Origin: Candidatus Aenigmatarchaeota archaeon
GTDB lineage: Archaea; Aenigmatarchaeota; Aenigmatarchaeia; QMZP01; QMZT01
Direction: 5' to 3'
NCBI GenBank assembly: GCA_043808015.1
Contig: JAZDFI010000029.1
Span: 1-64,000, forward strand
Length of the DNA: 64,000 nucleotides
This document shows positions 1,667 to 19,699 of this stretch, one piece after another. The notes below the pieces were generated by a model, which saw nothing but the letters and a program-made list of their open reading frames with translations, ran no database searches and was not told the origin of the DNA. The translations under genes were made by a program, and so were the position numbers. The stretch's first letter is position 1; each line of letters opens with the position of its first letter.

Positions 1667-3088
1667 ATGATTGAATACGCTATAGTAGTTTTGCTCGTAG
1701 GCGCTTTTCTTACGCCTGTCTTCAGGCGAAGCTTCGTCCCGCTGGCTGCGATATTGTTCTCGTTTCTCGTCATGGCCTCGGTTTTTATGCAGGGCCAGAC
1801 GGTGATAATGGAGTTCAGCGGATGGACGCCGCCCTTTGGCATTGTATGGGTCGTCGATAGTTTCAACGCTCTAATGGGCCTTCTGGTGACTGGCATGGCC
1901 ATGCTGGTTGCCGTCTACTCCACCAAATACGTACGGGAGCGAAGGAGCCGTTTCTTCACGTTATTGTGCCTCATGACAGCCGGGCTTCTCGGCGTGACGC
2001 TTACCGGCGACGTGTTCAACATGTATGTTTTCTTCGAGATCCTTTCAATCGCGTGTTACGGTCTGGTCGCCTTCAACACGGACAAGGAAGCGATAGAAGG
2101 CGCGCTTAAATATATAGTCCTAGGTCCGCTGGCTTCCTCTTTCATTCTTCTGGGAATAGCCATGCTCTACGGTCTTACGGGGACGCTGAACATGGCGGAC
2201 ATAGCCATGAAGGTCGGACCGGACATCGCATTCAACGTAGCGTTCGGATTTCTCATAGGAGGATTCGCTCTTAAGTCCGCGATAGTGCCTTTCCACTTCT
2301 GGCTGCCTGATGTCCATCCTGTCGCACCGAGCCCCATATCCGCGATGCTTTCAGGCGTCGTAGTGGGAACCGGCGTGTACACTGTCATGAGGATAATATT
2401 CACGGTATTCGGCTTTTCGGGCGTCATGTGGATGTTCGTGGCTTTCGGCGTTTTGACCATGATTATCGGAGGCATAATAGCCATAGCCCAGACGAACGTG
2501 AAGCGTATGATAGCTTATTCGACTGTCAGCCAGAGTGGTTACATTTTCCTGGCGTTTGGCCTTGGCACGCAGCTTGGCGTTTCGGCTGCGATATTCCACC
2601 TTGTCAACAACATCGTCATTAAATCGCTGCTTTTCCTGGCAGCGGGCATAATCATATGGCACACGGGAAAGAAAGACATGAACGACCTCGGCGGCCTTGG
2701 GAAGCAGCTCCCGCTGGTCATGATATGCTTCGGCATCGGAGCGCTGAGCATCATCGGTCTTCCGCCATTCAACGGTTTCGTGTCCAAATGGATGATTTAC
2801 TCGGCCACGTGGGAAATAAGCCCCGCCCTTACCGCGATTGCGATCATAGTTTCCGCCATGACACTGATTTACTACGTGAAAGCGTTCGCTAGCGTGTTCC
2901 TGGGCCGCAGCAAATGCGAGATACGAGAAAAAACGCCGCTGGCGATGCTGCTGCCCGTCATCATACTGGCTGCTATATGCGTGTTTTTAGGCGTTTTCCC
3001 GCAGCTGGCGATTGGCGCAGTCGAGAGCGCGGCCGCCGCTTTATTGAATCAGGGCCAATATATAACTGCCGTGCTGGGGGGTGTATGA
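1667..3088 (+). CDS. mbhH: Mbh subunit H (MrpD-like proton-translocating antiporter subunit)
   Basis: TGDVFNMYVFFEI, LKSAIVPFHFWLPDVH and GLPPFNGFVSKW motifs; many TM helices. Confidence 0.9.
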   Translation: MIEYAIVVLLVGAFLTPVFRRSFVPLAAILFSFLVMASVFMQGQTVIMEFSGWTPPFGIVWVVDSFNALMGLLVTGMAMLVAVYSTKYVRERRSRFFTLLCLMTAGLLGVTLTGDVFNMYVFFEILSIACYGLVAFNTDKEAIEGALKYIVLGPLASSFILLGIAMLYGLTGTLNMADIAMKVGPDIAFNVAFGFLIGGFALKSAIVPFHFWLPDVHPVAPSPISAMLSGVVVGTGVYTVMRIIFTVFGFSGVMWMFVAFGVLTMIIGGIIAIAQTNVKRMIAYSTVSQSGYIFLAFGLGTQLGVSAAIFHLVNNIVIKSLLFLAAGIIIWHTGKKDMNDLGGLGKQLPLVMICFGIGALSIIGLPPFNGFVSKWMIYSATWEISPALTAIAIIVSAMTLIYYVKAFASVFLGRSKCEIREKTPLAMLLPVIILAAICVFLGVFPQLAIGAVESAAAALLNQGQYITAVLGGV

Positions 3089-3384
3089 TGTTCGAAAACT
3101 GGTCGCATTTCATTCTGGCTTTTCTCGGCTTCATCTGCATTGGCCTGATAATATACCTGACGGGCAACAGGGGCAAAAAAACCGAGGGCTGGAAGAACGA
3201 GCCTTACACGTGTGGCGAGCCGTTCCCAATGGCGGATGTCGGCGCGGATAATTTTTACGGTTCGATAAAGCAGAGCCTGCGCATAGATGAAATACGCAAG
3301 CTCCATTCCGGCAGGCTGACAGACTACCTTTTATGGATGGTCGTGGGCGTGACTGCCATACTAATCATGGTGATATTTTTATGA
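3085..3384 (+). CDS. mbhI: Mbh subunit I-like membrane protein
   Basis: Likely start ATG 3085 overlapping the mbhH stop. TM-KNEPYTCGE...LHSGRLTDYLLW pattern; operon position. Confidence 0.7.
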   Translation: MMFENWSHFILAFLGFICIGLIIYLTGNRGKKTEGWKNEPYTCGEPFPMADVGADNFYGSIKQSLRIDEIRKLHSGRLTDYLLWMVVGVTAILIMVIFL

Positions 3385-3857
3385 ACGAGGAAATGCTCAA
3401 AATAAGCGAAGCGGGGGGAAAGCATTCCGGTAAATGGAAAAAAGGCGGTTTGCATGGTTTTTTCAGGAGGAAATCGGCCTGGCTGCTGCACATCGGCGCG
3501 AGCGGCTGCAACGGGTGTTCCATCGAAATAGTCGCCGCTCTCTCGCCCAAGTACGATGTCGAACGCTTCGGCATACTCGCAAAGGGATCGCCAAGGCATG
3601 CCGACATACTGGTCGTGGAAGGGCCTGTTAATGTTAAAATGAAAGAACGGTTGCTGGCGATATACCAGCAGATGCCCAATCCCAAGTACGTCATCGCTTA
3701 TGGTGCGTGTCCTATATCGAAAGGCGTGTTTTACGACAGTTACAACGTGGTCGGGCCATTGGACAAAATCCTGCCTGTCGATGTTTACGTGCCGGGCTGC
3801 CCGCCGAGGCCTGAAGCCCTGATAGACGCGATAGTCAAGGTCATGGGAAGGATGTGA
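3381..3857 (+). CDS. mbhJ: Group 4 [NiFe]-hydrogenase small subunit / NuoB-like Fe-S protein
   Basis: GCNGCSIE, SPRHAD, GACP and VPGCPPRP motifs; ATG 3381 overlaps the upstream stop. Confidence 0.9.
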   Translation: MNEEMLKISEAGGKHSGKWKKGGLHGFFRRKSAWLLHIGASGCNGCSIEIVAALSPKYDVERFGILAKGSPRHADILVVEGPVNVKMKERLLAIYQQMPNPKYVIAYGACPISKGVFYDSYNVVGPLDKILPVDVYVPGCPPRPEALIDAIVKVMGRM

Positions 3858-12043: not shown

Positions 12044-12138
12044 TGTAGGAATGATTTAGAATGATTAGATATTTAAACATATTTTGGCATGAAAGCTATA
12101 AAAACTTATACGGCCAATTCTATTTAAGAGGTGTAAAT

Positions 12139-12417
12139 ATGCACGCGATGGTAAAAATAATATTGGGACTTGTGCTTGTGCTGGTTGGTCTTGGGCTTTT
12201 CGTTGACTCGGTTTACCCCATAATGGGCGTAAAGGGAACGTTCGGGATAGACTGGCTTAGCAACTTCGTAACCGTGCTCACGGGAGTCATACCGATATTC
12301 CTGATACTCATCGGTCTGTTCATAGTGTGGCTTGAAGCCGATGAAATGAAGACCGCCAAGGAGTTCCAGGAGCCGGTTGAGGAAGTAAAGGAAGATAAGA
12401 AGCGCAAGAAAAAATAA
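12139..12417 (+). CDS. Small two-TM membrane protein
   Basis: ATG 12139 after GAGGTG SD; two hydrophobic segments and a charged tail. Confidence 0.65.
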   Translation: MHAMVKIILGLVLVLVGLGLFVDSVYPIMGVKGTFGIDWLSNFVTVLTGVIPIFLILIGLFIVWLEADEMKTAKEFQEPVEEVKEDKKRKKK

Positions 12418-12418
12418 G

Positions 12419-14140
12419 CTACAAATCGGTTCTCTGAACGATGGAATCCTTTATATCTACATTCTTGTCTTTTTTCCTGATTTTTTCCCCTATTTTTGAA
12501 CGCTGAACGATCGAATCTATAATGTTTATGGTCTCGCTGACCTCGATTTTCTGTATTTCAGTCGCTAGCGACATGGCTATGACTGTGTATTTGACTATGT
12601 CGGCAATCTTTTCTGATAGATTTTCAAGCTCTTCATCCTTGGATGAGTAGAGTTTGAAGGCGACGTGAACAAGACTATCGTCTTCTCGTAGCACGCAGGT
12701 AAGAAGGTAAGTGTCGCCGTCGCTGGACTCGCCGGAGAAAAGGTATAGCCTTTCATTGTCGAACTCATGCGACGCGACAGCCGCAAAATCCCTGCATTCC
12801 TCAAGGACGTGGCTCGAAACAGTCTTTATGTCCGTCCCTTTTAGTGTGTATCCTTTTATTGTCGACTGCAGGTCCGCCTTCATTTTCACGAACTCGTGCT
12901 CGCTTATTTCTTTCGGATGTATGAAGTTCTGCAGGAATCTTCTGAACTTCTGGGTATAATTGAGCTTGTCCATGTTCTCTTTGCTGGTCTGGCCGTTGCT
13001 AGCGGCTGTACGCGCCGTCTGCAGCGATTCCTCCAATACGAAAGGCTCGATATCCTTGATGAAATTCCTGCCGCGCAGGTCGTGGAAGCTTATCGCGGGC
13101 TTGAGCATCGTTTTGCCCGTGACCATCGGCAGTATCTTGAAAACGAAACCCTTCTCCTCGCCGGGGTTTATCTTTTCTATCTCGTAGCCGCTAACAGGGT
13201 CGACTTTTATTTCCACCGGGAAATTCATGACCAGGTTCACGTCGCTTATGGGTTGCCTTGAGTTGTTGGCCACGGAAACCACGAAATATGACTTTTTGCC
13301 GACTTCCAATCGCTCCCTAAGATACGGCCTCACATCGATGTTAGGGATGACGCACATTCTCGGCGGCTCTATCTCGCTTTCCATGCGCTCGCCCCTGGCG
13401 TTTTTCCATTCAACCTTCGAGTAAAACGGCTTCACGTTTTCGGATGACGTGACCATGTAACTGAGCGCTCTGGACTCGCCAGGCTTCATGGAAGCGACGC
13501 TTTCGAGAACGTTCGCCTTTACGCCAAGTATCCTTATATCACTGAGCGTCTCTTTCGTATCGTTTCTTAGTGCAAGCGTTACTTTGACTTTTTCGCCTTC
13601 CTTTACCACGTCGCTCTCGCAGGTATGGCTTATGCTGAGATGCGGGGCGATTCTGGCGATGTCATGTATCCTTTTTTCTATCTCCTCGCTGTATTCGATG
13701 TCGAGTGATTTCCTGTAATTTTTGATTGCCAAGTTGTAGTCGTTCATCTTCTCGGCCGCCTGCCCCATCAGGTTGTAGCACCACTGCACCGCATATAGCG
13801 AGCCTGCGCGTGTGAAATAGTCTATCGCCTTGGTTGCGAAGTTCATGGTGTTGTTGAAGTCATTGAAAGAGAACGAGTAAAACGCAGCGGACTTGTATGC
13901 CCAGCCCGTGTTGAAATCCTTGCCCAGCTTGAGGTTGCACTGCACCTCCTCAAGGCAGAAGTCGACGGCTCGTTTGTCGTTTACCGATTCAGCCAGCCTG
14001 GCGGCCTCCTGATAGACTTCGGCTGCTTCAGCGCACTTGCCCGACTTGGCCATTTTTTCCGCTTTTTTGGCCAGGCTTTCCACTTCTTTCGTCGTTTTTT
14101 TCACTTCTTTCGCGTTGGCATGGGGCTGTTGCTTGTCCAT
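12419..14140 (-). CDS. TPR/SNAP-like + two Ig-like + putative adaptin-appendage platform domain protein
   Basis: N-terminal helical repeats (AAEVYQEAA, YNLAIKNYRKSL); two Ig-like domains (VTLALRN..MKPGES; VSVANN..INPGEE); alpha/beta C-domain starting ISEHEFVKM; no signal peptide. Domain calls are inference. Confidence 0.6.
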   Translation of the reverse strand: MDKQQPHANAKEVKKTTKEVESLAKKAEKMAKSGKCAEAAEVYQEAARLAESVNDKRAVDFCLEEVQCNLKLGKDFNTGWAYKSAAFYSFSFNDFNNTMNFATKAIDYFTRAGSLYAVQWCYNLMGQAAEKMNDYNLAIKNYRKSLDIEYSEEIEKRIHDIARIAPHLSISHTCESDVVKEGEKVKVTLALRNDTKETLSDIRILGVKANVLESVASMKPGESRALSYMVTSSENVKPFYSKVEWKNARGERMESEIEPPRMCVIPNIDVRPYLRERLEVGKKSYFVVSVANNSRQPISDVNLVMNFPVEIKVDPVSGYEIEKINPGEEKGFVFKILPMVTGKTMLKPAISFHDLRGRNFIKDIEPFVLEESLQTARTAASNGQTSKENMDKLNYTQKFRRFLQNFIHPKEISEHEFVKMKADLQSTIKGYTLKGTDIKTVSSHVLEECRDFAAVASHEFDNERLYLFSGESSDGDTYLLTCVLREDDSLVHVAFKLYSSKDEELENLSEKIADIVKYTVIAMSLATEIQKIEVSETINIIDSIVQRSKIGEKIRKKDKNVDIKDSIVQRTDL

Positions 14141-14178: not shown

Positions 14179-15279
14179 TCAGACGCTGATGTTTTCCTTC
14201 CAGTCATCGTATCTCTTTATCAGTTTCTGGCTCACGGTCTTCTTTATTTTTGAAAGCGCGTATGTAAAATCATCCTTAGTGAGCGGCCTGTATTTAATGG
14301 CGTATTTCTCCACCTGTGTCGCCGTCATATCTTCGAGATTCGGGTTCTGCTCGCGTATCATGAACATTATGGCCTCGCGGCATATGCTGGCTATGTCACG
14401 GCCGGAATAACCCTCGCTCATTTCTGCCAGTTCGTCGATGGTTATGCCTGACAGCGACGAGCCTTTAACGTGTATTTCGAATATCTTCCTTCTCGAATCG
14501 ACGTCCGGCAGCGGCACGTATATCTTTCTCTGGAACCTCGATATCATCGCGTCATCGAGATCCCATGGCCTGTTCGTGGCGGCCATTATTATGACCTTTT
14601 CGTCCTTCTTGGTCGAGAAGCCGTCTATCTCCACGAGCAGCTGGGATATGACCCTTCTCGTCGCTTCGTGGACGCCGGCTTCCCTGGTGATCATTATCGA
14701 GTCGAACTCGTCCATGAAAATAAGCGAGGGCTGGTTTTTTCTTGCCTTTTCGAAAAGCGCGCCTATGATCTTCTCAGATTCGCCATAATATTTGGAGAGG
14801 AGAGTCGATGTCTTCGCCTCGAAGAAGTTCGCCTTCAGCGTGTTGCTGGCCGCCTTGGCTAGCAGCGTTTTTCCGGTTCCCGGAGGCCCGTAAAGCAGTA
14901 TCGTGCGCGGCACCTCCACAAACGCCGGCTTGCCAGCAATCATGGGCAGGATTATCGACTCCCTTACCTCGCGCTTCGCTTCCTTTAGACCGCCTATGTC
15001 TTCCCACTTCGTCGTGGGCTTTTCGTAAACTATCATTTTGTCTATTGGCTGTTCGGACTTCTTTCGAGCGCTACTGACGCCCTCGAACTGGTCAGCAGAA
15101 TGGAACAGTGATGCAGCTTCGCCTCTGGGGGATATGTAAGCCAGGCGCCTGTAAATAGATGCGGCGACCTTGTAGTGTGTTGTCGCCTGCTTTGATTTAC
15201 CGTCCGCTTCAAGCTTCCTGGCGGTGTCCAGTTCGTGCTGGAGCTGCTGTTTCAAAAGCGACTCTCTCAGTTCGCCCAT
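14179..15279 (-). CDS. Vps4-like AAA+ ATPase with N-terminal MIT-like domain
   Basis: WEDIGGL, GPPGTGKT, SKYYGESEK pore loop, IFMDEFD, ATNRPWDLD, GYSGRDI, C-terminal YDDWKE helix; N-terminal ARKLEADG...A..HYKVAA helical bundle. Confidence 0.85.
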   Translation of the reverse strand: MGELRESLLKQQLQHELDTARKLEADGKSKQATTHYKVAASIYRRLAYISPRGEAASLFHSADQFEGVSSARKKSEQPIDKMIVYEKPTTKWEDIGGLKEAKREVRESIILPMIAGKPAFVEVPRTILLYGPPGTGKTLLAKAASNTLKANFFEAKTSTLLSKYYGESEKIIGALFEKARKNQPSLIFMDEFDSIMITREAGVHEATRRVISQLLVEIDGFSTKKDEKVIIMAATNRPWDLDDAMISRFQRKIYVPLPDVDSRRKIFEIHVKGSSLSGITIDELAEMSEGYSGRDIASICREAIMFMIREQNPNLEDMTATQVEKYAIKYRPLTKDDFTYALSKIKKTVSQKLIKRYDDWKENISV

Positions 15280-15298: not shown

Positions 15299-15919
15299 TC
15301 ACTCTGTGTCCTCTTCCTTCTTTTCCTCTGTTATCGACTTCGCTTTCTCGCCGGCCATGCGCATCGCCGTCTCTTCATCCACCTTTTCCAGGTCGTTTAT
15401 GGCGTGCATGAGCTCCTGCGATTCCTCGTCGACGAGCATCTGCTGCTTGCCGAAGACCCGTTCCAGCTTTTCCTTCACCTTATCCAGACGGCCTTCTTCC
15501 AACGCTTCTCGTACATCGGTATCGGTAAGCACTTCGCTCAGCCTGTCCATGTCCGTGTCGAGAATTTCCTTCGCTATCGACGAAATTTTCTCGCTCTTCT
15601 CGCGCTGTTTCATGGCCTGGACAAGCAGTAGAAGCTGCAATTCGCGGAGAAAATGAGATGCTTCAATCTGCTTCGTGCGAGACTCGAGACTAAACGCCTT
15701 GATTTTCTGCACGTTAAGCATCTTGAGTGTATTGGGCTGGCCCTTCGACTCGAGCATGAGCTTCTGGATTTTTTCGGCAATACCCCTGAGGTCGTCGGAA
15801 ATCCTCTCTACTTCCTTTTCTATTTTGAGGCGTTCCTTGAGCAAATCATTGTCTTTTATGGAAAATATGTCCTTGCCGAATTTCGATTTGATGAATTTCT
15901 TGAAATCCACCGCTCTCAC
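15299..15919 (-). CDS. Snf7/ESCRT-III-like coiled-coil protein
   Basis: 206 aa, predicted all-helical, basic N-half and acidic C-half; directly upstream of the Vps4-like ATPase. Confidence 0.6.
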   Translation of the reverse strand: MRAVDFKKFIKSKFGKDIFSIKDNDLLKERLKIEKEVERISDDLRGIAEKIQKLMLESKGQPNTLKMLNVQKIKAFSLESRTKQIEASHFLRELQLLLLVQAMKQREKSEKISSIAKEILDTDMDRLSEVLTDTDVREALEEGRLDKVKEKLERVFGKQQMLVDEESQELMHAINDLEKVDEETAMRMAGEKAKSITEEKKEEDTE

Positions 15920-15955: not shown

Positions 15956-18900
15956 ATGAAGCGCGGTTTTCTGCTATCGCTCGACGCAATTGTGGCGATA
16001 ACTTTGTTGCTGTCGGTATCGACTTTTTTGGCGGGAATTTCGTTCACTTATTCGACGCCCGAGTTACGCTATCAGCGCTATTACTATGCCGGCAAGGATA
16101 TCGCCGCATTGTTTCAGGAAGCCAGAATCAGCTCGGTATCGGACGTCGTCAACCTGACCAAATACAACCTTACACAAGAAGAGATGAACAGGACCATTCT
16201 CGACGTTATCGGCTCTTTCTGGGCCGGCGGCAACATGAGTGTCGCTAGTAATCTGACAAGGGACATTTTCAGCGAAGTTTTAGGAAACACTGGTCTCAAC
16301 TACGAGGTTTCTTTCAACGACGAAACGATATATGCCAGCGACGACTCTTATTCGGATTTTGTGGCCAGGCTGTCGACTGTTGTATCAGGTTATGAAAAAA
16401 CGAAACCTGTCAACGGATATCTTGCGAAGGTTTACGTAACGAAAGTCTCGAAAACCAATTCGGAGTTCATATATTTCGGCGGCTACGAGGGCGACGGTAA
16501 CATAACAAAGGTCATCACGCTTCCTGTCGACGTCAACGTGACCGGCGCGTATCTTGAAATGAACGTCGGCAACAATTTTTTGCTTTACATCAATGGCCAG
16601 GCTGCAGGAACGTACGTCAAGAGCGCCGTAAATTTTTCGGCGGACAACTGGACCATATGTTCAAAAACGAATCCGTCATACTGCTCATACTTTGCGGCCG
16701 GCCAGAACATTATACAGCTGAACTTCACAACAAACCAGAGCACATACGTGGGCGGCGGCTATCTTAAGGTCACTTACAAAACCTCCGAGCTTACGGAATA
16801 CACGACCAGCGGCAATGCCAGTGATTACTATGAATTTCCCGGCATACGCGGCATTATCAACCTTTATTCGTCTTTCTACGTGCCGGGCACGCTTAAAAAC
16901 ATGAGTGCAAGATTGCATTACAACAACAACCTCAGCCTCAACAACCAGGGCGTGCCAGTCTATTTTGTTATTGGTTCAAAAGAAATATACAGGAGCAACG
17001 CCACAGGGGAGCATGTAATCGATATCCCTGAAAAAAACATATCCGATGCGTTCGGAGGAAAAGCGAATCTCACGGAAAAGCTCAGCAACGCGACCATACC
17101 CATACGCTTCGGCACGGATACCTTCGCCTTTACAAGCGGTGAGGGAACGAGCGACTCTATTCTAATAACAGACATTTCAGGCAGTATGGGCGGCTCCACG
17201 GCCTCATGTGACGTGCAGACTACCGCATGCGAGCACACGGACTGCAACACGGCCAGCGGCTGCCAGAACTACAGGATAGACGTGGCAAAGGACGTGGACA
17301 ACGATTTCGTGGATAACATCCTCAACTACACCGGCAACATGCTCGGCCTTATCAGCTACTCGACCACCGTATATGACAGCCACCCGCTGAGCAATGACAG
17401 CTCTTCACTCCATGCGGAAATAGACGGTTACACACCAACAGATTATACCTGCATATCATGCGGCATCCTCATAGCGACGGACATGCTCCTCGATGCGGCG
17501 GTAATAAATGAAACCATAAAACCGAATTCCACGTGGCTGTATAATGTCAGCTTCCCGTCAAGCGAGCCGCCCGTCGTGAACGGAAGCGAGTGGACATGGC
17601 AAAATTACAGCGATGATGGCTGGTCGTCCGGACAGTCAATACTTGGTTTCGAAAGTCCATCATATTTCCCCAACATAAACACGAACATAGGCAACAACGG
17701 CGGCAACTATTATTTCAGGAAGCACTTCAATTTCACCAAGGCGATGATAGACTCGGCGGACCTTTACGTGCTCTCAGACAACGCTGCCGAAATATACCTC
17801 AATGGCCATCTTGTTTACAACGATACGTCCGAGCACAACGCCAGATACTGGAACAACTACTACGATGTCCTTGATGAAAATTTCGAAAGCTACTATGCCA
17901 GTGGCGACAACAGGCTTTATTCTACCGAAATAAACCGCACGCCTGGCTACTGGATTGTAGACGGAACGCCAGACGCTGACAAGGAAGTGTTTATCATGGC
18001 CAACTACGCGGGTTACCCGGCTCATAAAGGGACGGACGTCATGGTCTTCAGGGACATGGACGCATACGGCTCGGTGGAAACGCATCTCAATCTCTCCGGA
18101 AAGGCGAACCTCACGCTTTCATACTGGTGGTCGCTGGGCGACGATGAACCGGACAGCGGGGAATATTCCAATATGCGCATATGGGACGGCAGCTGGCACA
18201 CCGTGAAAACTTACAATGCGAGTCACGTTTACGGCGACTATCACAAGGAAACGATAGACCTGAACGCATATAACATGGTAAACAACTTCACTGTAAGATT
18301 CGGCTCAAGGTCGAGCAGCGATACTGAGAGGTTTTATGTCGACGATGTCCGTATCGCTGGTTCGGCAACGCACATAGAAACATCATATTTCAATGACGGA
18401 GAAAACGTCGTTGCCGTGAGACTCAGGAACAACGACGCTGTCGCGGCGAAGTTCGACGCGGCGCTCAACATAACAATGAAGCGATACAAGGCGATGCTGG
18501 TGATGAGCGACGGGCTCGCCAACAGACCCCTGGGCGTCAATGCGACCGAAGACGCCGTGAGCAAGGCCTGCGATGCGAGAAGGCGCGACATCCAGACGTA
18601 CACGGTCGCCTTCGGCACACAGGCAGACGGAGAGACTCTCAAAAAAATAGCGTGCTGGAACTGCACCACAGGCTCATGGATTCCTAACTGTGACAGGTTC
18701 TATAACAGCACTGATGCCGAGGAGCTGCAGCAAATATACAGGTCAATCGCAAGAGATATTGCTAACGCCAGCTACGCCGGACAGCTTTTCAATTTCACGG
18801 GTAACGTATCCATGAACAACATCCTATACACGGACTCTTACATATATTTTGATTACACGCCGGTTGTCAGGACCCCCGAATACGGTGAGATAACCCTTAA

Positions 18901-19699
18901 TTTCGAATCCCCGCGCCTGGGCGCATCCACAGGCGATATTATGACGACCGATAACGAGACAGGAACAAAGGAGGGCTGGTTCTTCATACCGGGTGACACT
19001 GAAGTCTCGACGGAAGTGCTTGATTCCAAAATAACCTCTTATTCCTCGTACTATTGGACGGACAGGCTTTGGGTCAACTCGTCCAGCACGCCTAATCAAA
19101 ACTGGACGCGCGTATACTGGCTCGCAAATTACTCAAGCGACTACGAAAAACTGGGAGACCCGTACATAGTGCAGATACCGCCCAACATTCTTACAGCGAA
19201 CGGCAACAATTCGTTTAAAATAGGCACCGGGCTTCGTCCGACTCCGCTGTCCGGAGGCAAAGGCGCCTCGCCGGACGACAGGGTGATTTACACGCTGGGC
19301 ATAAAAGGCATAAGCCTCACCCAATACAGCGATGTTTTTGCCAAGGCTAAAGGTTCGACTGTCACGATATATTACGATGCGAACGGCGATAACGTCGCGG
19401 ACAGCTCTTCTGTGGTGGAAATCGGACCGGACCCTGACGACAATTTCGACCCCATGAACGACTCGATAGATAATGGTTTTATGAAGCTCATTGACAGGAT
19501 GAATTTCATGAGCGATGTTAATTCAGGCGTGGTCGACTTAAATTACACGGCATCGGGACCAAGCGGCACCGGCGACGGCTCTTCAGGCAACCCGGTCGAC
19601 CTGGAAATAACAGAAGACGTGAATTTCAATTCTGATTTCATATCCCAGATATCATCCATGTGGGGTCCTGCGATAATGGAGGTAAAAATATGGGGATGA
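15956..19699 (+). CDS. Large surface protein with class III (pilin-like) signal and interrupted vWA domain
   Basis: True start MKRGFLLSLDAIVA at 15956; MIDAS DISGS; MSDGLAN and YTVAFG vWA elements; many N-x-S/T sequons. Confidence 0.8.
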   Translation: MKRGFLLSLDAIVAITLLLSVSTFLAGISFTYSTPELRYQRYYYAGKDIAALFQEARISSVSDVVNLTKYNLTQEEMNRTILDVIGSFWAGGNMSVASNLTRDIFSEVLGNTGLNYEVSFNDETIYASDDSYSDFVARLSTVVSGYEKTKPVNGYLAKVYVTKVSKTNSEFIYFGGYEGDGNITKVITLPVDVNVTGAYLEMNVGNNFLLYINGQAAGTYVKSAVNFSADNWTICSKTNPSYCSYFAAGQNIIQLNFTTNQSTYVGGGYLKVTYKTSELTEYTTSGNASDYYEFPGIRGIINLYSSFYVPGTLKNMSARLHYNNNLSLNNQGVPVYFVIGSKEIYRSNATGEHVIDIPEKNISDAFGGKANLTEKLSNATIPIRFGTDTFAFTSGEGTSDSILITDISGSMGGSTASCDVQTTACEHTDCNTASGCQNYRIDVAKDVDNDFVDNILNYTGNMLGLISYSTTVYDSHPLSNDSSSLHAEIDGYTPTDYTCISCGILIATDMLLDAAVINETIKPNSTWLYNVSFPSSEPPVVNGSEWTWQNYSDDGWSSGQSILGFESPSYFPNINTNIGNNGGNYYFRKHFNFTKAMIDSADLYVLSDNAAEIYLNGHLVYNDTSEHNARYWNNYYDVLDENFESYYASGDNRLYSTEINRTPGYWIVDGTPDADKEVFIMANYAGYPAHKGTDVMVFRDMDAYGSVETHLNLSGKANLTLSYWWSLGDDEPDSGEYSNMRIWDGSWHTVKTYNASHVYGDYHKETIDLNAYNMVNNFTVRFGSRSSSDTERFYVDDVRIAGSATHIETSYFNDGENVVAVRLRNNDAVAAKFDAALNITMKRYKAMLVMSDGLANRPLGVNATEDAVSKACDARRRDIQTYTVAFGTQADGETLKKIACWNCTTGSWIPNCDRFYNSTDAEELQQIYRSIARDIANASYAGQLFNFTGNVSMNNILYTDSYIYFDYTPVVRTPEYGEITLNFESPRLGASTGDIMTTDNETGTKEGWFFIPGDTEVSTEVLDSKITSYSSYYWTDRLWVNSSSTPNQNWTRVYWLANYSSDYEKLGDPYIVQIPPNILTANGNNSFKIGTGLRPTPLSGGKGASPDDRVIYTLGIKGISLTQYSDVFAKAKGSTVTIYYDANGDNVADSSSVVEIGPDPDDNFDPMNDSIDNGFMKLIDRMNFMSDVNSGVVDLNYTASGPSGTGDGSSGNPVDLEITEDVNFNSDFISQISSMWGPAIMEVKIWG

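Follow-up and report, generated by a model that had tools for sequence, protein, structure and literature searches.

Do archaea of the DPANN phylum Aenigmatarchaeota encode sorting adaptors with an appendage ("ear") of the kind found in eukaryotic vesicle coats? The question is raised by a minus-strand gene, 12419..14140, in a 64,000-nucleotide stretch of contig JAZDFI010000029.1 (the whole stretch is called the window below) from a Candidatus Aenigmatarchaeota archaeon (assembly GCA_043808015.1, 0.93 Mb, 90.7% complete). The first-pass annotation had compared its product, named here the TPR-Ig-Ig-platform protein, with an adaptin or coatomer appendage carried on a solenoid, like a miniature vesicle-coat adaptor. 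Profile alignments place the second Ig domain, the platform and the tail of this protein in the archaeal arCOG15284 superfamily, and structural models predict an ear-like fold for the first two. Taken together with the neighbouring genes, the evidence tips slightly towards a soluble adaptor subunit of a minimal membrane-remodelling module of Aenigmatarchaeota, similar to the endosomal sorting complex required for transport (ESCRT). The three co-directional genes of the putative module are separated by 19 and 38 nt:

15299..15919, minus strand: coiled-coil protein "cc206", 203–206 aa; its gene comes first in the cluster and ends 19 nt before the ATPase gene
14179..15279, minus strand: Vps4/CdvC-like AAA+ ATPase, 366 aa, of which about 70 form a helical N-terminal domain; 38 nt upstream of the TPR-Ig-Ig-platform gene
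12419..14140, minus strand: TPR-Ig-Ig-platform protein, a soluble 573-aa protein of 65 kDa (pI 6.3) with TPR, Ig, Ig and platform domains and a tail

Gene conservation and domain architecture

The open reading frame (ORF) is a real, conserved gene, because it has 24 homologous cluster representatives at E ≤ 0.001 (8000 candidates scored, identity 36–92%) and full-length relatives at 22 genome loci. The close relatives lie in Aenigmatarchaeota. The protein was found in 19 of 121 sampled genomes of the phylum, and all carriers belong to three families of one order (10/11, 2/2 and 6/6 genomes); it was found in none of 11 genomes of a fourth family and in none of the remaining families searched in this sample. 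The host genome contains a single copy of the Ig-platform module. The N-terminus is hydrophilic, and neither a signal peptide nor a membrane helix was seen in a Kyte-Doolittle analysis (19-residue window, highest mean 1.03), which indicates a cytoplasmic, soluble protein.

Two structural models were used. Model 1 (AlphaFold2) covers the full length with a 24-sequence alignment and has a mean predicted local distance difference test score (pLDDT) of 81.3 and a predicted template modelling score (pTM) of 0.39. Model 2 covers residues 262–573 with a 51-sequence alignment including Methanosarcinales relatives (pLDDT 82.9, pTM 0.79). The following parts can be distinguished:

13646..14113, minus strand (residues 10–165): TPR array of eight helices, forming four hairpins; the sequence profile is SNAP-like, whereas the fold is that of a generic TPR array
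13346..13639, minus strand (residues 168–265): first Ig-like beta-sandwich (model 1)
13025..13342, minus strand (residues 267–372): second Ig-like sandwich, counterpart of the appendage sandwich subdomain (model 1)
12983..13024, minus strand (residues 373–386): low-confidence linker (pLDDT below 50 at residues 372–387 of model 1 and 114–120 of model 2)
12566..12982, minus strand (residues 387–525): alpha/beta platform-like (TBP/helix-grip) domain (models 1 and 2)
12422..12565, minus strand (residues 526–573): conserved tail bearing the DSIVQR[ST] motif twice; no other stretch of the family is as well conserved
12497–12517, minus strand (residues 542–548): motif DSIVQRS, read from the sequence
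12428–12448, minus strand (residues 565–571): motif DSIVQRT, read from the sequence

Much of the first-pass annotation is borne out by these data. The ORF and the strings quoted from it are in place (PKEISEHEFVKM starts at residue 409, nt about 12916, and LLTC...SEKI corresponds to residues 479–512), and the lack of a signal peptide agrees with the hydropathy values. The N-terminal TPR/SNAP-like repeats are seen as eight helices in residues 10–164 with matches to Pfam SNAP and TPR families, and the two beta-sandwiches and the alpha/beta domain are all present in the models.

The sandwiches have weak Pfam matches to DUF11, NPCBM_assoc, Transglut_C and TRAPPC13_C. The platform is modelled in the order helix, short strand, helix, strand, helix, four strands, long helix. 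In the tail, residues I538, N539, I540, D542, S543, V545, Q546, R547, I550, G551, D565, S566 and Q569 are invariant in the family.

Membership in the arCOG15284 superfamily

An archaeal "adaptin appendage, ESCRT component" was described as arCOG15284 by Makarova et al. (2024, mBio 15:e00335-24; PMC10936438). According to that paper, the "Meth_adaptin" ESCRT loci of Methanosarcinales encode Vps4, ESCRT-III, an SPFH protein and ProX, and its supplementary file 10 gives HHpred matches of 98% between arCOG15284 members and 2IV8_A (AP2 beta) and 5NZR_B (beta-COP). The authors call the platform a TBP/helix-grip fold and use the association of ear-like domains with archaeal ESCRT to argue for sorting adaptors in the last archaeal common ancestor. 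WP_129582672.1 and WP_094229259.1 are listed there under arCOG15284, WP_013898571.1 is another member, and the published members bear Zn ribbons, membrane helices or GOLD/extracellular domains.

The two listed proteins are paralogues encoded by the Methanolobus psychrotolerans genome, and the link to arCOG15284 rests on them. As was found by hhalign, the family profile aligns with WP_129582672.1 at 98.4% (E 9.2e-15) over 236 columns comprising the Ig domain, the platform and a DSIIQRSNIG motif, and with WP_094229259.1 at 96.7% (E 3.4e-10) in the Ig domain only. On the strength of these alignments, the unit of second Ig domain, platform and tail is assigned by sequence profile to the arCOG15284 superfamily, a kind of protein known since 2024. 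The M. psychrotolerans genome encodes a third module paralogue, the FGE-fusion WP_340637528.1, which is not on the arCOG15284 list of that publication.

Searches with the C-terminal part of the profile retrieve numerous archaeal proteins that differ in architecture; about residues 406–577 are aligned in most and 286–573 in many of them. Of 66 module proteins of other archaea, 65 carry the tail motif in a loose form and 48 carry at least two copies; at least one membrane helix is predicted, by a crude method, in 41 of the 66, and a CxxC...CxxC pair is present in 13. TPR, beta-propellers, FGE-sulfatase and S-layer domains are among the further domains of these proteins. In Methanosarcinales and others, a double [IV]xDS[IV]VQR[ST] motif follows the platform, with the copies about 21–26 residues apart, and a Zn ribbon or a membrane helix often comes next.

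The protein thus shares with arCOG15284 the tandem of Ig and TBP-like domains, the DS[IV][IV]QRS...IG motif after the platform and the location of the gene near Vps4-like ATPase genes. It differs from the published members in being soluble, with an N-terminal TPR array and an extra Ig domain instead of a Zn ribbon, membrane helix or GOLD domain, and in belonging to a DPANN lineage. The strings "DPANN", "Aenigm" and "SNAP" are absent from the main text of PMC10936438 (supplementary files 7 and 9 were not searched), and where the main text speaks of motifs, the tail motif is not named. DPANN archaea account for three rows of the component table, all of them Vps4, and Aenigmarchaeota appear there as seven column headers only; of the 34 arCOG15284 rows, the first 30 belong to Methanosarcinales, Archaeoglobales and Asgard, with no DPANN among them. 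Judged by titles and the beginnings of abstracts, none of the papers listed by a literature search deals with adaptin, DPANN and ESCRT together. It appears that the DPANN lineage, the soluble TPR-Ig fusion, the three-gene set, the non-Snf7 coiled-coil partner, the natural TPR-only versions and the conserved tail motif are novel.

Structural resemblance to appendages

In a Foldseek search of the PDB with model 1, the top matches were the appendages of beta-COP, beta2-adaptin, alpha-adaptin and gamma-COP (E 4.5e-10 to 1e-7). With model 2, ears filled ranks 1–16 (E 1.6e-12 to 5.9e-7), and their match extends over the two subdomains in the correct order; single Ig domains came next, at E about 2e-6. 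The VIA structure comparison also ranks ears first, and the platform superimposes on 2mj7 at 2.7 Å over 117 residues. An ESM Atlas search with residues 262–552 gave scores that were all below 0.8, including eukaryotic TRAPP Ig domains and, at rank 13 (0.76), an adaptin-ear cluster, and serves as a lead only. The models thus predict an ear-like fold for the second Ig domain and the platform, with the subdomains in ear order: as in the ears of AP2 alpha/beta2, AP-4 beta and COPI beta/gamma-COP (PDB 1w80, 1e42/3h1z, 2mj7, 9qpq_H and 1pzd/1r4x), the alpha/beta platform comes immediately after an Ig sandwich.

Several structural findings pull the other way and weaken the case for an ear-bearing adaptor. 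The predicted orientation of sandwich and platform differs from that in solved ears, since superposition of the whole unit gives a root-mean-square deviation (rmsd) of 13–17 Å and a TM-score of 0.26–0.41 over 185–209 aligned residues. The lead of the platform over generic helix-grip (Bet v1-like) folds is only about 1.6 Z. Sequence identity to ears is 9–13%, with no match in sequence searches: the Pfam ear families (Alpha_adaptinC2, Alpha_adaptin_C, B2-adapt-app_C and COP-gamma platform) were not matched at E ≤ 0.1 by the whole protein or at E ≤ 10 by residues 389–573, and of the 140 PDB sequences matched by the family profile, the best 60 included no eukaryotic ear.

The ear resemblance proposed earlier therefore stands in its ranking, its subdomain order and its homology to arCOG15284, but not in its packing. 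The C-terminal domain is matched better by ears than by generic helix-grip folds, within the narrow lead given above, and Ig-platform packing of the ear type is not predicted by the models. Ear platforms carry an aromatic (Trp) peptide-binding site, as is known for AP2. In the present protein, the "EF...W" helix that had been taken as a sign of an ear is not there, because residues 388–573 contain no Trp. The picture of a coat-like solenoid is not supported either: AP and COPI subunits have a HEAT trunk and a hinge, whereas a short, generic TPR array of 155 residues and an extra Ig domain are found here. With a Vps4-like ATPase and a coiled-coil protein encoded next to it, the gene has ESCRT-type surroundings, not the clathrin or COPI context of a vesicle-coat adaptor; no search was made for other AP subunits.

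These differences could mean that the C-terminal half is a generic scaffold of Ig and helix-grip (TBP/Bet v1/START-like) domains, that its likeness to ears is convergent or trivial, and that the C-terminal domain binds a lipid or small molecule with no relation to vesicle coats or ESCRT. The large two-domain rmsd, the lack of Pfam ear matches, the platform region devoid of Trp and the separation of the gene from the ATPase gene in 7 of 22 loci would all be expected of such a scaffold. It would be harder to reconcile with the uniform run of ears in the top 16 Foldseek ranks, with the 98.4% homology to a family for which HHpred matches of 98% to ears are listed in PMC10936438, with the recurrence of module proteins beside Vps4-like genes in Methanoperedens and Methanolobus psychrotolerans, and with the co-occurrence of cc206 in all 19 sampled carrier genomes. 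On the whole, a generic scaffold is considered unlikely.

The Vps4-like ATPase and the coiled-coil protein

The ATPase matches the Pfam families AAA (1.4e-41), AAA_lid_3 (6.1e-12) and Vps4_C (1.2e-7), and its Walker A, Walker B and pore-loop motifs are conserved. On the NCBIfam model of CdvC it scores 233.8 bits, so the cut-off of 650 is not reached. A phylogenetic tree of 28 rows, which carries a long-branch warning and does not include the reference set of PMC10936438, placed the ATPase in a clade with a thaumarchaeal CdvC and Vps4-like enzymes of Methanoperedens and Methanosarcina (support 100/99); the Cdc48-D2 and PAN-like rows are left out of this clade.

The coiled-coil protein cc206 has 252 homologues, mostly in Aenigmatarchaeota, and no Pfam or NCBIfam family match. 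Its true start is probably at 15910 (203 aa, MDFKKF...) and not at the GTG codon at 15919, since the relatives and database records begin at residue 4; with this start, about 45 nt separate it from the divergent giant gene. The N-terminal half is basic and the C-terminal half acidic (net charge +8 and −13), with the same signs in 29 of 29 members. A BLASTP search showed that cc206 is homologous to the product of the gene upstream of the Methanoperedens Vps4-like ATPase (E 6e-15). By comparison of sequences, cc206 is not a detectable ESCRT-III, and the charge asymmetry is its sole ESCRT-III-like trait. In the ESM Atlas, one cluster with 16% Snf7 was found at rank 26, which is a lead only.

A Vps4-like gene is adjacent to the TPR-Ig-Ig-platform gene in 13 of the 22 full-length loci; two further loci are ended by the contig end, and in seven the genes are not adjacent. 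Besides the 19 carriers, cc206 was found in six more genomes (25 of 121 in all). The genes of cc206 and the TPR-Ig-Ig-platform protein lie at most 3 kb apart in 9 of the 19 genomes, all of one family.

Outside Aenigmatarchaeota, the Methanoperedens locus encodes a cc206 homologue, a Vps4-like ATPase, two module proteins and a Zn-ribbon-SPFH protein, and module proteins are also encoded beside Vps4-like genes in Methanolobus psychrotolerans. The 597-aa Vps4-like ATPase of Methanoperedens (L024:932-2725, plus strand; AAA, Vps4_C) carries a fused diadenylate cyclase (DAC) domain of the DisA type; the string "Diadenylate" is absent from the main text of PMC10936438. In Methanosarcina sp. Mfa9 (L093, plus strand), genes for a 199-aa coiled-coil protein (18-617), a 420-aa Vps4-like protein (1114-2376) and a TPR-repeat protein (2664-3722) follow in sequence. 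This order echoes that of the DPANN cluster and may be a coincidence, as TPR proteins are common there.

Like the Meth_adaptin loci of the Methanosalsum zhilinae type, the cluster encodes an appendage-like protein and a Vps4-family ATPase whose gene has that of a small helical protein upstream. It differs from them in having one appendage protein and not two, in an upstream protein that is not Snf7-like, and in an ATPase that groups with CdvC and the Methanoperedens and Methanosarcina enzymes instead of the Vps4 of the Methanolobus adaptin locus. An SPFH protein is a further difference, as no Band_7 match was found in the host genome at its 90.7% completeness; ProX was not searched for.

The TPR array and its likeness to SNAP

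Pfam SNAP matches the TPR array at E 5.3e-5 over profile positions 12–148 of 282, with 23.3 bits against a cut-off of 25, and several Pfam TPR families match it as well. Among PDB sequences, the family profile matches gamma-SNAP over the full length of the TPR domain (E 6.1e-7) and alpha-SNAP more weakly (E 0.003); a single-sequence phmmer search gave TPR matches only. The gamma-SNAP match shows relatedness of the TPR part only, and the SNAP-likeness is a sequence-level lead with no specific fold assignment. An alpha-SNAP-specific fold was considered and rejected: in an unbiased VIA search, ordinary TPR proteins do as well as SNAPs or better.

Alpha-SNAP, gamma-SNAP and Sec17 are adaptors of the AAA+ protein NSF. 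They resemble the present protein in their N-terminal TPR-like helical array of equal length and in the profile match to gamma-SNAP, and the gene here lies beside one for an AAA+ ATPase. They differ from it in that the array stays under the Pfam SNAP cut-off, that ordinary TPR proteins do equally well in the fold search, and that the neighbouring ATPase resembles Vps4 and not NSF. The C-terminal bundle with which SNAPs contact NSF is not present here, and the TPR domain stops at residue 165 in model 1.

In three related genomes, the slot after the ATPase gene is filled by TPR-only ORFs of 167–173 aa, which are 53–56% identical to residues 6–161. These proteins have a Lys-rich end and lack the Ig-Ig-platform part; the synteny (small membrane protein, L15e) is the same. 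They are encoded in the following Aenigmatarchaeota loci, in each case as the gene after the Vps4-like ATPase:

L074:3724-4227, minus strand: TPR-only gene
L075:2601-3107, minus strand: TPR-only gene
L076:3417-3938, minus strand: TPR-only gene

The persistence of TPR-only versions beside the ATPase, together with the SNAP profile and Pfam matches, would also suit a SNAP/NSF-type proteostasis cofactor that is not a sorting adaptor: the TPR array would hand a helical-bundle substrate (cc206, or proteins recognised by the Ig and platform domains) to the AAA+ ATPase for unfolding or disassembly, without membranes. None of the cluster components has a membrane helix, and the failure to find an SPFH protein in the genome points in the same direction. 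Such a role is nevertheless rather improbable: the fold search does not single out SNAPs, the bundle is absent, the ATPase has a Vps4_C domain and groups with CdvC-type and not Cdc48/NSF-type enzymes, and the basic and acidic halves of cc206 are typical of membrane-binding ESCRT-III.

A putative ESCRT-like module

In the favoured reading, that of a soluble adaptor of an ESCRT-like module, the module would comprise cc206 with its ESCRT-III-like charge asymmetry, the Vps4/CdvC-like AAA+ ATPase and the TPR-Ig-Ig-platform protein. The ATPase would remodel or recycle cc206 assemblies. The TPR array would couple the protein to the ATPase/cc206 pair; it is taken to be the part tied to them because TPR-only genes fill the same slot in related genomes. 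The appendage-like unit may be a protein-interaction hub that brings cargo or a partner, and the doubled DS[IV]VQR[ST] tail, found in Methanosarcinales on membrane-anchored proteins, may be a docking or self-association motif. Sorting, vesicle formation or membrane repair would be a likelier function of the module than primary cell division, since the genome has four FtsZ/tubulin-family genes (ORFs of 349–396 aa on contigs C21, C33, C34 and C15; loci L069-L072).

Beyond the structural findings given above, a number of observations speak against this reading. All contacts between the module proteins are inferred. The gene is unlinked from the ATPase/cc206 pair in the 7 of 22 loci mentioned and in 10 of the 19 sampled genomes, and adjacency is mostly a trait of one family of kin, that is, of non-independent genomes. 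No MIT domain was detected by Pfam in the helical N-terminus of the ATPase, and the tree sets the ATPase apart from the Methanolobus Vps4 that adjoins Snf7-like or arCOG15284 genes. As for cc206, Pfam Snf7 matched none of 29 members and nothing in the host genome, hhalign with the Snf7-like proteins of Methanolobus and Nitrosotalea gave a probability of 0.5%, and the search of PDB sequences with the cc206 profile returned three weak unrelated matches and no ESCRT-III, PspA or Vipp1. A complex prediction with the full-length ATPase, cc206 and TPR residues 1–170 scored 0.00 against a mark of 0.32; it was run without controls and is evidence neither way.

Other genes of the window

A giant pilin-like adhesin gene (15956-19699), divergent from the cluster, is syntenic in many loci. 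The TPR-Ig-Ig-platform protein might be imagined as a cell-surface or adhesion accessory of this neighbour, as Ig domains of the CARDB/DUF11 type are common in archaeal surface proteins and the Ig region of the profile matches giant multi-Ig proteins. This is very improbable for a protein without a signal peptide or membrane helix, whose gene is co-directional with the ATPase gene at a distance of 38 nt; besides, in relatives the module and the Zn ribbons share one side of the membrane helix, and this points to a cytoplasmic location.

On the other flank, a plus-strand gene of the window (12061-12417) codes for a protein of 118 aa that has two to three hydrophobic helices and a charged tail. 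The gene is convergent with the TPR-Ig-Ig-platform gene, with 2 nt between the two stop codons. Its synteny is kept in most Aenigmatarchaeota loci, and it seems to travel with the L15e gene, not with the TPR-Ig-Ig-platform gene (L021). The window also contains an archaeal signal recognition particle RNA and the gene of ribosomal protein L15e, the latter recognised by Pfam.

Implications for archaeal sorting systems

A bolder and tentative proposal, to which only a small probability is given, is that the trio of cc206, Vps4-like ATPase and TPR-appendage protein represents a distinct, undescribed minimal membrane-remodelling system that is common to a clade of Aenigmatarchaeota and to Methanoperedens-type loci. 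In such a system, a non-Snf7 coiled coil would replace ESCRT-III, a SNAP-like TPR adaptor would couple cc206 to the AAA+ ATPase, and the double motif would be a new docking signal for ear-like modules that are soluble here and membrane-anchored in Methanosarcinales. If this proposal were true, the adaptor logic of both the ear type and the SNAP type would predate eukaryotes and reach beyond Asgard and Euryarchaeota.

The DPANN version adds an independent deep lineage to the argument for ancestral sorting adaptors. With three soluble proteins, the module would be the smallest natural system for an in vitro test of the role of the ear-like domain, because the protein is soluble, is fused to a SNAP-like TPR array and belongs to a three-gene cluster. 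The TPR-only variants and the strictly conserved tail provide handles on the question of which part contacts the machine. In host-attached DPANN cells the module could, speculatively, bear on vesicle formation or membrane exchange.

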